Below, piece after piece: positions 1,376 through 24,219 of a DNA stretch of 25,609 nucleotides (position 1 is its first letter; each line of letters starts with the position of its first letter). Source of the stretch: a virus (lineage: Duplodnaviria; Heunggongvirae; Uroviricota; Caudoviricetes); IMG/VR virus record IMGVR_UViG_3300045988_034843; one strand, written 5' to 3'. The notes below the pieces were generated by a model. The model searched no databases. It was given only the letters and a program-made list of their open reading frames with translations, and had not been told where the DNA came from. The position numbers were made by a program, and so were the translations under genes.

Positions 1376-2103
1376 TATCGTTTCGCTTTGTGCTCGTCCC
1401 AGCACGTTTTGCACCATGCCATTAAGCCATCCGCATTTTGATTATTAGGGTAAAAGCTTGTTCGTTTTCTGCGGACATTACAAATTGGGCACCACTTCAT
1501 ATGGCGTGTATTCTTTGGGCCATCGAGACACCTTGCACACCACTTAGTCAATCCATCTGGATTTTTTGACGATTTCCTGAATTTTTCATATGGTAGGTTT
1601 ATTCTGCATCGCAAGCACTGCTTGCTACCACTTGAAACTCTGTTAGCTGATTCTTCTTTTGGCGGCGATACAGAAGGTATTCTTGCTGGCTCTGATACTG
1701 CCTGAGGTGCTTTTTTAGATGACTGAGACGATATGTCATCACCAGGGAATCTTCCATGATATGCCGGACGCGTTGACACTCCAGGTGGAAGCTCAGCTGT
1801 AAACGGCTTTGGCTGAATCAGTTGCCTCTCTTTTGCTAACTCCTGCTGTTTATAATATGTCTGGATTACCGCACTATCATAAGCAGGAGGTGCGGAAATA
1901 TTAGGCGCATTACCTCCAGTTTTTTGAAACTGAGTAGAGGTGTGTTCTATCACCTGTGTACGATTAATCGTTATCTCCCCATCTTCGGTCTTTATCGTTT
2001 TGTTATGATTAACGACCGTACGATCAGAGATCTTAGTCTTGTTCTGGTTGATAACGTAAATAATCACCGCAACCACACCAACAACTATCCAGAAAACTTC
2101 CAT
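1375..2103 (-). CDS. Membrane-anchored protein with tandem C-x2-C-x22-C-x2-C zinc-ribbon-like repeats (242 aa); function unknown
   Basis: Track ORF; N-terminal hydrophobic helix (VFWIVVGVVAVIIYVI); C-terminus has two repeats CLRC...NPDGLTKWCARC and CPIC...NADGLMAWCKTC; GAGGAAAA RBS upstream of ATG at 2103. Confidence 0.7.
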   Translation of the reverse strand: MEVFWIVVGVVAVIIYVINQNKTKISDRTVVNHNKTIKTEDGEITINRTQVIEHTSTQFQKTGGNAPNISAPPAYDSAVIQTYYKQQELAKERQLIQPKPFTAELPPGVSTRPAYHGRFPGDDISSQSSKKAPQAVSEPARIPSVSPPKEESANRVSSGSKQCLRCRINLPYEKFRKSSKNPDGLTKWCARCLDGPKNTRHMKWCPICNVRRKRTSFYPNNQNADGLMAWCKTCWDEHKAKR

Positions 2104-2123
2104 TGCTTTTCCTCACAATAACA

Positions 2124-2138
2124 TTACCTTAAAGGTAA
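2124..2138. promoter_or_regulatory. Dyad operator-like site TTACC-TTAAA-GGTAA (copy 2)
   Basis: Centre 28 bp upstream of the minus-strand ATG at 2103; overlaps a candidate TTGATC-N17-TACCTT promoter on the minus strand. Confidence 0.6.
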
Positions 2139-2216
2139 TATCTTGCTTTCAGGTGATCAAGCGTTAAACGCAATCAACCAAATACGGTTGATTTTAATAT
2201 TTCTTCGCGTTTATCA

Positions 2217-2231
2217 TTACCTTTGCGGTAA
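2217..2231. promoter_or_regulatory. Dyad operator-like site TTACC-TTTGC-GGTAA (copy 3)
   Basis: Same half-sites and spacing; lies in the 400-bp intergenic region between the divergent genes at 2103 and 2503. Confidence 0.55.
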
Positions 2232-2321
2232 ATTTACATTGCACTCCTCTTGTGCCATAGTAATCGGGCACTGGCAAAATCCAGTGCCGGGATTGGTCTC
2301 CCGGATTACTAAGTGGCGCAT

Positions 2322-2344
2322 ACCACGCCAGACGTGGTTTTTTT
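2322..2344 (+). terminator. Rho-independent terminator-like hairpin in the leader upstream of the Ant-like gene
   Basis: ACCACG-CCAGA-CGTGGT stem-loop followed by TTTTTT(T); preceded by two further hairpins at 2267-2288 and 2287-2304. Confidence 0.5.
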
Positions 2345-2502
2345 ATGCGTATAGCACAGTCATGCCAGAATTATGGTGGGCTGAATGGGGGTCCGAAAGG
2401 ACGCCGGTACCACTTAGGCCGGTAAGACCAACTCCGTTCAGTTCACCACCATCTGATTGGTCTCAGCGGTGGTGATGTAATTCGCTAAGTGGAGACGCCA
2501 TC

Positions 2503-3159
2503 ATGAACGCTCAACTCATCCCCGTATTCAACGGCACTATATCTAACGAAACAGCCCTACTTTGTAATGCCCGCGATCTGCACGCTTTTTTAGGTGTTAA
2601 AAAGGTGTTTGCAGCATGGATTACAAATCGCATATCAGAATACGAATTCATTGAAAATCAAGACTATATTTTGCTTTCCAATTTGGGAAAGCAAACATCT
2701 GGTAGAGGCGGCCACAACCGCAAAGAGTACCACCTCACCCTTGATACAGCCAAAGAGCTGGCGATGGTCGAGCGTAACGAAAAAGGTCGCCAGGTGCGAC
2801 GCTACTTCATTGAATGCGAGAAACGTTTAAGACAACAAGAAACAAAAGTGGAGAAGGTCTTGTCAGGCTTCATGCCCGCCATTATGGAGGCGATCAAGCT
2901 GGAAGACAAAAAAGAATACAGCGCCCCACTGAAGCCCGGCTACCGCAGCCTGATTCACTCGCCGTCTGGTGTTCTCGGCCTGACTGAGAACTCACTGCTG
3001 ATGAATCTGCTGAACCAGTTACAGGAAGACGGGCACGATGTATCTGGCGCGGCGGCGGAGCTGACCACCATGTTCTGCTACATCGTTGGTGTGAGCAAAT
3101 GCCTGCGTGATATCCAGACCCACGCGGAGTACATCAACGACAAGGCAGGGTTCTTCTGA
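2503..3159 (+). CDS. Antirepressor-like protein, AntA-type N-terminal domain (218 aa)
   Basis: Track ORF; GGAGA RBS 7 nt upstream; N-terminus IPVFNG...[10 protein letters not shown]...F..W...RI.EYEF.EN.DY resembles the AntA/AntB antirepressor domain as I recall it; C-terminal third is paralogous to the 85-aa protein at 1095-1352. Confidence 0.7.
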
Positions 3160-3244
3160 CGAGCGGCGGCACATGGATGTGCCTACAATTATCAATAATT
3201 GTTTACACTCGTTGCAGTTAAAAGCATTATACTCATGTTTAAAA

Positions 3245-3259
3245 TTACCCGATTGGTAA
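3245..3259. promoter_or_regulatory. Dyad operator-like site TTACC-CGATT-GGTAA (copy 4)
   Basis: Centre 29 bp upstream of ATG 3281, downstream of a TTATACT -10-like element. Confidence 0.6.
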
Positions 3260-3280: not shown

Positions 3281-3607
3281 ATGAGCAGAAGATATGTCAA
3301 GGAGCTGGCTATAGAGTCTGGCACCCCTTTGGGTATCGTTCCTGGCTCCAACTATGCCAAGGCTTTAAACCGAGACTCTGTCGTCAAAGTTATATCAAGA
3401 GACATGAATATGGTCGGAGACGATCTCAGACGGTCAGAAAATCGTGTTTATGCTGAATATATAGTAAAGAACGGAAAAAAAATTGCAGCGCCTGCTGGCG
3501 GAAAATGGGCAATAGTGACAGGGAAAAACTCAAATGCAAGAGGAAAACCAGAAGCTAAAGGAATGTCCTTCGACAAATATGCAAAAATCTATTGGGCAAC
3601 CAAGTGA
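3281..3607 (+). CDS. Hypothetical protein (108 aa)
   Basis: ATG 3281 with GAGG 7 nt upstream (track ORF 3266-3607 trimmed to this ATG); AT-rich, lysine-rich; no motif I recognise. Confidence 0.55.
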   Translation: MSRRYVKELAIESGTPLGIVPGSNYAKALNRDSVVKVISRDMNMVGDDLRRSENRVYAEYIVKNGKKIAAPAGGKWAIVTGKNSNARGKPEAKGMSFDKYAKIYWATK

Positions 3608-21036: not shown

Positions 21037-21051
21037 ATTACCTTTCAGGTA
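21037..21051. promoter_or_regulatory. Dyad operator-like site TTACC-TTTCA-GGTAA (copy 5)
   Basis: Same half-sites and spacing; preceded by TTGACA (21016-21021) 17 bp before TACCTT; lies between the 20947 minus-strand start and the plus-strand tRNA. Confidence 0.6.
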
Positions 21052-21374
21052 ACCAAAGAGTTCATTCCGGTTACTAACCTGACTGGCTTGTCGTTAAATT
21101 GAACAGGTGGAGTGAGCTTTTATTTTGAGCAGTACGGCGTATGGCACATGCGCCGATAGCGGTCTGGATGCGTTTAAGGGGCACCCTCCCTGGCTGTGGC
21201 AAACGAACCAGGTAGCCGGAATGTGCAAGTCGAGCGGTTTTATTCCGCGCACGGGGATTCACCATCCCGGCGATTCGGTGTGACGCCTCGGAAGAGACGA
21301 GGGTACAACGATGAGAGCATTTATGGAGCCGCGACAAAGTGTGGCGCCTTAACAGGCTAAGTGCTCTCAGCGTT

Positions 21375-21451
21375 GTGGCATTAGCTCAGTTGGACAGAGC
21401 AACCGCCTTCTAAGCGGTTGGTCGCAGGTTCGAATCCTGCATGCCACGCCA
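21375..21451 (+). tRNA. tRNA-Arg (anticodon UCU), 77 nt with encoded CCA
   Basis: Hand-folded cloverleaf: acceptor GTGGCAT/ATGCCAC, D-arm GCTC-AGTTGGACA-GAGC, anticodon stem ACCGC/GCGGT with loop CTTCTAA, T-arm GCAGG-TTCGAAT-CCTGC, discriminator G, CCA; close to but not identical with E. coli argU as I recall it. Confidence 0.85.
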
Positions 21452-24204: not shown

Positions 24205-24219
24205 TTACCGTTGTGGTAA
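24205..24219. promoter_or_regulatory. Dyad operator-like site TTACC-GTTGT-GGTAA (copy 6), embedded in GGTAA-TAG-TTACC-GTTGT-GGTAA-TAG-TACC
   Basis: Centre 25 bp upstream of the terminase small-subunit ATG; extra half-sites on both sides form a tandem GTGGTAATAG(T)TACC direct repeat. Confidence 0.55.

Follow-up and report, generated by a model that had tools for sequence, protein, structure and literature searches.

An IsrK-family leader and a c4-type antisense RNA precede the antirepressor gene of a phiV10-like Escherichia coli prophage

IsrK is an Hfq-binding small RNA (sRNA) of the Salmonella prophage Gifsy-1, for which experiments demonstrated two forms, a short terminated sRNA and a read-through isrK-orf45-anrP mRNA that begins with the IsrK sequence (Hershko-Shalev et al., 2016; PMC4825925). 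In the long form, pairing of the middle of IsrK with 'orf45' keeps translation silent, whereas IsrK supplied in trans activates translation of the antirepressor more than 100-fold and favours prophage induction; compensatory mutations demonstrated the pairs G28-C162 and G31-C159 (PMC4825925). In the immI region of phages P1 and P7, a C4 RNA is preceded by a two-hairpin leader that carries the a1 and b1 segments (Citron and Schuster, 1990), and immunity of the satellite P4 (Sabbattini et al., 1995; Forti et al., 1999; both as cited in PMC10111431, of 2023) involves RNA-controlled premature termination. Here we describe a structured leader that lies upstream of an antirepressor gene (ant) in a 25,609-nucleotide (nt) stretch of viral DNA (Caudoviricetes; IMG/VR record IMGVR_UViG_3300045988_034843), the whole of which is referred to as the window. 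By its Rfam match this leader is a member of the curated sRNA family IsrK, and the space between it and ant holds, by the same kind of match, a second curated RNA of the c4 type. The locus is very probably an unannotated instance of a known system, namely the IsrK/c4-a1b1 leader of a c4/CI-type antisense immunity module.

When the whole window was searched with Rfam, three matches exceeded their gathering scores: a tRNA-Arg, isrK and C4 antisense RNA. The isrK model (RF01394) matches 2268-2344 on the plus strand with 67.7 bits (gathering score 50), over model positions 1-77 of 77 and with E about 1e-12, and the C4 model (RF01695) matches 2369-2453 on the same strand over its full length with 61.2 bits (gathering score 45). 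A permissive scan added RF03163 (c4-a1b1, 'a1, b1 targets of C4 antisense RNA') over the two hairpins of the leader (2255-2307), with 39.9 bits and E = 9e-9; the Rfam scan produced no match to other antisense families. The c4 and c4-a1b1 motifs are both listed in Weinberg et al. (2010), and relatives of CI and seqA of P4 are picked up by the C4 and isrK profiles of Rfam (PMC10111431). The original prediction had treated the roughly 160 bp before ant as a spacer. Its measure of the distance holds, as the end of the U-run lies 159 nt from the ant ATG (2503), but the stretch is not empty, the c4-type RNA having been overlooked. By alignment to the annotated P1 c4, the mature C4-like RNA would have its ends at about 2375 and 2450. 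The RNAs and the gene that they precede are as follows.

2268-2344, plus strand: IsrK-family sRNA and a1/b1 leader (RF01394, hairpin-1 covariation, terminator scan)
2369-2453, plus strand: c4-type antisense RNA of the C4/CI family (RF01695)
2503-3159, plus strand: ant, the regulated gene, encoding a 218-residue antirepressor (Pfam AntA/AntB, PF08346, E = 4e-26)

Within the leader, two hairpins and a terminator had been proposed at 2267-2288, 2287-2304 and 2322-2344, and they are present at essentially those coordinates.

2268-2287, plus strand: hairpin 1, GCACUGG-CAAAAU-CCAGUGC (sequence, Rfam isrK model)
2288-2303, plus strand: hairpin 2, CGGGA-UUGGUC-UCCCG (sequence, Rfam isrK model)
between hairpin 2 and the terminator, plus strand: single-stranded linker, which holds box b1
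2322-2344, plus strand: intrinsic terminator, ACCACG-CCAGA-CGUGGU, with its stem at 2322-2327/2333-2338 and a U-run to 2344 (consensus scan)

Folded in isolation, the 77-mer reaches -29.4 kcal/mol, compared with -20.2 ± 3.2 for shuffles (z = -2.9). Relatives were gathered from viral and genome collections, searched with a pattern taken from the conserved loops, and the covariation that the original prediction had proposed to look for is found in hairpin 1. Across 145 distinct homologues, 98% of its cells are paired (20-45% with slid partners), compensatory double changes occur in five of the seven pairs, and its covariation score was reached in none of 500 shuffles. Hairpin 2 shows one-sided changes only (G-C to G-U), its 5' arm having been fixed in the search pattern. 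For the terminator and for a further hairpin discussed below (hairpin 3), pair counts from a MAFFT alignment were out of register, being best at a slide of +2 in a poorly aligned region; conservation of both was taken in their place from a per-sequence stem search with shuffle controls. By that search, a terminator-type stem of at least 4 base pairs (bp) stands ahead of the U-run in all 173 relatives analysed; it replaced an earlier check with U barred from the stem, which had found the terminator in 89 of 145. The expectation of a small RNA or of a conditional termination checkpoint before ant is thus essentially correct, given the match to the isrK family, whose Gifsy-1 member has both isoforms (PMC4825925). 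A plus-strand small RNA had been foreseen at about 100 nt; the length is now predicted as 77 nt.

The two RNAs and the ant leader are connected by short complementary boxes, which are named a and b after the nomenclature of the P1 record.

2293-2299, plus strand: a1, UUGGUCU, in the loop of hairpin 2; exact complement at 2425-2431, exact repeat at 2457-2463
2309-2316, plus strand: b1, CUAAGUGG, in the linker that separates hairpin 2 from the terminator; exact complement at 2410-2417, exact repeat at 2485-2492
2410-2417, plus strand: b', CCACUUAG, C4-like RNA, loop of its second inner hairpin (own fold)
2425-2431, plus strand: a', AGACCAA, C4-like RNA, internal stretch left unpaired (own fold)
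2457-2463, plus strand: a2, UUGGUCU, downstream of C4; second target copy
2485-2492, plus strand: b2, CUAAGUGG, overlapping the ant Shine-Dalgarno sequence GGAG (2491-2494)

The a' and b' segments of the C4-like RNA are exact 7-nt and 8-nt complements to both target pairs, a1/b1 and a2/b2, and the Shine-Dalgarno sequence overlapped by b2 stands 8 nt ahead of the ATG. Among 104 distinct viral segments the a-box takes five variants, and in 102 of these segments the exact complement of the segment's own variant is found downstream together with a second identical copy; the complement lies 116-183 nt away (mostly about 135-145 or about 180) and the second copy ~30 nt beyond it. The complement of a foreign a-variant was never present in the 104 segments. 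The b-box varies far more, with 76 distinct variants in 135 loci (6 a-variants overall and 85 a/b combinations), and at each locus it matches the C4 loop as well as a copy 8-14 nt ahead of the next start codon downstream. Such covariation of three copies argues strongly, on comparative grounds, for pairing of the C4-like RNA both with the IsrK leader and with the ribosome-binding site. When 2268-2520 is folded as one piece, the minimum free energy (MFE) structure pairs the a1/b1 region of IsrK with the a'/b' region of C4 in cis (z = -4.6). It was also observed that the closing stem of C4 has a competitor: its 3' strand (UCACCACC, 2443-2450) is also able to pair with a conserved GGUGGUGA (2468-2475), giving a hairpin with a2 in its loop that is mutually exclusive with the mature C4 fold; a GGTGGTGA-like sequence 3' of a2 is kept in most relatives.

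Gifsy-1 presents the same order of promoter, 77-nt terminated RNA, C4-like RNA (STnc1160/'orf45') and antirepressor gene. By the position numbers of the Gifsy-1 paper and the shared geometry, G28/G31 and C162/C159 fall on what are here a1 (nt 26-32) and a' (nt 158-164), and the 'structure A' described there (PMC4825925) corresponds to the predicted cis fold of 2268-2520. The Gifsy-1 a-box would be of the UUGGCGU type, compared with UUGGUCU here, and Gifsy-1 is a lambdoid prophage whereas the present element is podovirus-like (Uetakevirus). No antQ-type gene was seen next to the locus in the list of open reading frames (ORFs) or in the RefSeq annotation.

P1 and P7 immI (Citron and Schuster, 1990) share with the window the C4 fold and an a1/b1 leader of two hairpins, after which come a further hairpin and a U-run. 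In P1, too, a lies in the loop of hairpin 2 with b beside it, b' lies in a C4 hairpin loop and a' is unpaired, a2 and b2 follow downstream with b2 on a Shine-Dalgarno sequence, and an antirepressor is the output. The P1 record annotates, in order, the C1 operator Oc4 at the promoter, a1, b1, c4, a2, b2, icd and ant1/2, and P1 immI scores 68.8 bits with C4, 51 bits with c4-a1b1 and, more weakly, 35 bits with isrK. Since the P1 leader scores low on isrK and the window leader scores low on c4-a1b1, the two are taken to be diverged subtypes. P1 has two promoters, P51a and P51b, its c4 is processed by RNase P from the primary transcript into a stable ~77-nt RNA, and its Ant proteins are unrelated in domain to the AntA protein encoded here.

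The P4 region (seqA, CI RNA/seqB, seqC) repeats the order of hairpins, terminator-like hairpin with U-run, a1/b1, b'/a' and a2/b2 with Shine-Dalgarno sequence, and scores 60.8 bits with isrK over seqA and 74.9 bits with C4 over CI. It differs in that ~107 nt separate the isrK-like element from CI, compared with 24 nt in the window, and in its box sequences, GUGAGAA and UUCACAGG. The genes regulated are kil/eta and the replication operon, not an antirepressor, and P4 is a satellite, not a phage. The APSE phages of Hamiltonella (LR794147; Rouil et al., 2020; PMC7313666) again have isrK, then C4, then a Bro-N antirepressor-type gene, with about 72% identity over the RNA region in a different host and phage genus; their record annotates both RNAs and the a'/b' segments, and the authors did not link IsrK to a1/b1 targets (PMC7313666).

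The manner in which ant itself would be reached appears to differ among these systems. In P1 and P4 a small translated ORF (icd or kil) is the direct target, and in P1 it is the ribosome-binding site of icd, a gene ahead of ant1, that lies under b2; in the window no such ORF stands between C4 and ant, and b2 covers the site of ant itself. When translation is lost in P1 or P4, Rho-dependent termination follows in addition. The conserved AUG of Gifsy-1 orf45 (2373 in the window) here reaches a stop after three codons and b2 lies directly on the ant Shine-Dalgarno sequence, so that upstream-ORF coupling of the Gifsy-1 type is unlikely. A protein-coding explanation of the stretch would nevertheless make the frame 2143-2475 (110 codons), or its 37-codon ATG part at 2362-2475, an orf45/icd analogue coupled to ant. 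The frame is indeed open across IsrK and C4, Gifsy-1 orf45 has been reported to be translated and coupled to anrP (PMC4825925), and in the phiV10 record the stretch is noted as resembling a Shigella hypothetical protein. We nonetheless hold this explanation to be very unlikely, as frames are open across C4 in only 53, 30 and 19 of 116 phage-type homologues and 39 of the 116 are without any ATG-initiated ORF spanning C4. Furthermore, the 37-codon ORF ends 28 nt ahead of the ant ATG, no RefSeq gene is annotated there, and of orf45 the nucleotide but not the amino-acid sequence is conserved (review PMC12197685). A conserved orf45/icd analogue over C4 was rejected for phage-type loci, no frame being consistently open among the 116. 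Control of ant by the C4-like RNA is therefore probably direct, without upstream-ORF coupling, because b2 lies on ant's own ribosome-binding site and no small ORF is conserved over or after C4.

The predicted transcript of isrK, C4 and ant is preceded by a putative promoter and by an operator-like dyad.

2233-2261, plus strand: putative promoter of the isrK-C4-ant transcript; -35 TTTACA at 2233-2238, 17-nt spacer, extended -10 TGcCATAGT at 2253-2261 (consensus scan)
2217-2231: operator-like dyad TTACC-N5-GGTAA ('dyad copy 3' of the original prediction), directly upstream of the -35, centre about -44 from +1
1004-1018, 2124-2138, 2217-2231, 3245-3259, 21038-21052 and 24205-24219: all copies of the dyad

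Transcription is predicted to start at G2268, the first base of the isrK model, because the conserved -10 sits at 2253-2261. In 151 distinct upstream sequences of homologues the -10 lies at -12 to -7, at a fixed distance from the RNA 5' end, with A-11 conserved in 147, T-7 in 146 and a T at -35 in 144. The TACATT (about 2235-2240) that had been read as a -10 overlaps the actual -35. Promoter-like sites in the region are at chance level in number (7 found, 5.6 expected). The dyad occurs in six exact copies in the window where none (0) is expected by chance, and the copies look like candidate operators of one DNA-binding protein that would link the immI-like region to structural-gene promoters. 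In P1, the C1 operator Oc4/Op51 at the c4 promoter stands in a position analogous to that of the dyad at 2217-2231. All copies precede genes or promoters: an ORF at 1095, a minus-strand ORF (1375-2103), the isrK promoter, an ORF at 3281, the portal-side operon and the start of a putative small-terminase gene. The minus-strand ORF diverges from the isrK promoter and would encode a protein of 242 residues, with a hydrophobic segment at its N-terminus and a C-terminus rich in Cys; it has a sub-threshold Pfam match only (Stc1, 21 bits against 24.8) and is hypothetical in RefSeq.

In phage P22, sar is a cis-encoded antisense RNA transcribed on the opposite strand over the ribosome-binding site of ant, and immI there also uses Mnt and Arc. 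In P22, as is proposed for the window, synthesis of an antirepressor encoded in a secondary immunity region is kept down by a small RNA, and the original prediction had drawn on this analogy. An opposite-strand small RNA that pairs with the ant ribosome-binding site is, however, an explanation to which we give almost no credence. The Rfam matches and the conserved complementary boxes, like all other elements of the leader, are on the plus strand, and a consensus scan found no minus-strand promoter-like site facing 2245-2503. Apart from the general precedent that RNA controls ant in P22, what favours the explanation is one weak minus-strand promoter-like site (TTGTCT-17-CATAAT, 2909-2881) and a terminator-like site (2800-2786) inside ant, in a region where the count of promoter-like hits is at the chance level already given. 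No sequence or structural relation to sar is apparent, and Rfam matches no further antisense family. As an observation in its own right, the minus-strand site and the hairpin at 2800-2786 (window 2778-2909) could give an antisense RNA of ~95 nt.

Taken as a whole, the locus is explained, in our judgement with high confidence, as the IsrK-type leader of an antisense-RNA immunity module of the P1-immI/P4 type; family membership, three-way complementarity with covariation, a conserved promoter and the identity of the regulated gene were all observed. In such a module, a sigma-70 promoter (2233-2261), with the operator-like dyad beside it, would start transcription at about G2268. The majority of transcripts would stop at the terminator (2322-2344) to give the 77-nt IsrK, with a1 in a hairpin loop and b1 single-stranded, and read-through transcripts would extend into the c4-type RNA (2369-2453) and ant; this layer of transcription and termination, including the short and long isoforms, is taken from homologues. 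The C4-like RNA would presumably be excised from the read-through transcript, as in P1 and P4, and its b'/a' segments would pair with a2/b2 on the ant mRNA, covering the Shine-Dalgarno sequence and blocking Ant synthesis. For the pairing itself the argument is covariation. Pairing of a1/b1 with the C4 segments in cis may lock the read-through RNA in an inactive state ('structure A' of Gifsy-1), and free IsrK in trans may compete for or titrate the C4 segment, turning ant on as in Gifsy-1 IsrK/AnrP. This trans and cis action of a1/b1, with the a1:a' pairing and the activation in trans that it includes, is carried over from homologous systems only. Expression, processing and the direction of control are accordingly predictions for this locus.

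Several points weigh against this explanation. The c4-a1b1 score falls below the gathering score of 46.7, so that membership in that Rfam family is not attained by score. Because the loop of hairpin 1 and the 5' arm of hairpin 2 are constant in the search pattern, the set is biased towards close relatives, and a detectable a' is missing in 36 of 241 pattern matches. RNAduplex energies of C4 with IsrK and of C4 with the ant leader are not significant over shuffles (z = -0.6 and -1.3). Long GC-rich partners give a high background, and with energies indistinguishable from shuffles the case rests on the exact boxes and their covariation. No small ORF is conserved between C4 and ant, unlike in P1 (icd) and Gifsy-1 (orf45), and the translational-coupling step of those systems may therefore not apply. 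The Gifsy-1 authors read IsrK as remodelling the mRNA and did not find antagonism of IsrK by STnc1160 (PMC4825925), so that a 'sponge' reading of IsrK is not established. Finally, we infer the start site, the termination efficiency and the processing of C4 at this prophage locus.

The leader has one further conserved structure, which bears on whether termination itself is the regulated step.

2314-2318 pairing with 2326-2330, plus strand: alternative hairpin 3, a candidate antiterminator (MFE fold, conservation; absent from the Rfam isrK consensus)

In the MFE fold of the 77-mer, hairpin 3 is chosen over the terminator. With at least 4 bp it is found in 96% of the 173 distinct homologues, its mean length being 4.45 bp compared with 3.03 in shuffles, and compensatory variants are many (GGCG/CGCC, GGCA/UGCC, GAGCGC/GCGCUC, GGUAC/GUACC). 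The 5' arm reaches into b1 in 132 of 135 loci, and in 130 of 135 the 3' arm shares bases with the 5' arm of the terminator; in several relatives (L008, L014, L036, L064) the whole terminator 5' arm serves as the 3' arm of hairpin 3, and in the window that 3' arm overlaps the terminator 5' arm and loop. From this geometry, binding of C4 to b1 would favour the terminator. These features speak for the rival that 2268-2344 is a C4-dependent attenuator, which mainly decides between termination and read-through and does not chiefly produce a trans-acting sRNA: C4 would pair with the nascent a1/b1, the hairpin 3 antiterminator would melt, the terminator would form, and C4 and ant would both be turned off in negative feedback. 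This would be akin to the antisense attenuation of pT181-type plasmids and to the CI/seqA-dependent early termination in P4, where early termination depends on CI-seqA interactions (PMC10111431), and the same possibility was raised for STnc1160 by the Gifsy-1 authors (PMC4825925).

We regard attenuation as the main function only tentatively, and as somewhat improbable. In the window hairpin 3 shares just 2 nt with the terminator arm, besides loop bases, so that formation of one does not strictly preclude the other, and mean stabilities are alike (-6.1 against -7.9 kcal/mol). Hairpin 3 lies outside the curated isrK consensus, the MAFFT-based count gave no in-register signal over this poorly aligned region, and co-expression of STnc1160 left the effect of IsrK unreduced in Gifsy-1 (PMC4825925). 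An attenuator is compatible with the explanation as an IsrK-type leader of an antisense immunity module and does not exclude it. It is doubtful, in our view, that the two combine into one device in which hairpin 3 is an undescribed conserved antiterminator, C4 sets its own level and that of ant by attenuation, and released IsrK titrates C4. If true, the module would be a self-contained toggle made of RNA only, its specificity set by freely recombining a/b boxes.

The element that carries this IsrK-type module is a phiV10/epsilon15-like prophage of E. coli. A 1.1-kb query (2100-3200), which spans the RNA module and ant, found a match in 825 of 5,426 complete E. coli genomes, covering at least 80% of the query in 82 of them, and identity to prophages in many E. 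coli genomes is 98-99%. Phage phiv142-3 is 98.6% identical over the region, and phiV10, which is classified in Uetakevirus, and TL-2011b show 84-89% identity over about half to two-thirds of the query. The locus lies between a tail-fibre gene and a virion structural gene. RefSeq names the 99%-identical gene 'phage antirepressor Ant' and otherwise gives only hypothetical proteins, while the phiV10 record has only a 'terminator', the RNAs of the module being unannotated in both. Downstream genes in relatives are largely of antirepressor type (Bro-N, AntA or P22_AR_N) or P4 kil/eta-like. Elsewhere in the window, a tRNA-Arg gene (anticodon TCT) at 21375-21451 (Rfam match 21375-21448) stands among structural and packaging genes.

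About one third of the loci with the isrK pattern have ~180 nt from hairpin 2 to a' instead of ~138 nt. These loci (L012, L018, L019, L039, L043 and others; viral contigs; P4 itself, L244, 8330-8740) are P4-like satellites and continue into small 'MATTPT...' proteins (clusters of 68 or 153 residues) that have no Pfam match; one RNA module thus serves both antirepressor control in phages and immunity in satellites. The exact isrK core pattern also appears in genome contigs L134, L144, L161, L170, L176 and L191, from assemblies labelled Bacteroidetes, Solirubrobacteraceae, Chryseobacterium, Vagococcus, Nitrosopumilus and Prolixibacteraceae. The element is otherwise proteobacterial, and its presence in such assemblies probably reflects contamination or mis-binning.

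The system is of an already-known kind, and only the conserved hairpin 3 and the breadth of the a/b box covariation are mildly new. The biology is confirmatory, and joins three literatures that are often separate, those of Salmonella IsrK, P1/P7 c4 and P4 CI/seqA; a 2025 review treats IsrK and c4 as unrelated sRNAs. For the model of a/b pairing, the three-way covariation set provides strong comparative support, while through the conserved hairpin 3 a testable connection can be drawn from C4 binding to termination, suggestive of C4-dependent attenuation. Names and a mechanism can now be proposed for about 250 nt that carry no annotation in RefSeq E. coli genomes and, apart from the 'terminator', none in the phiV10 record. 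The ant gene of these prophages is thereby assigned to a secondary immunity based on RNA, which bears on prophage induction and on heteroimmunity among related prophages.

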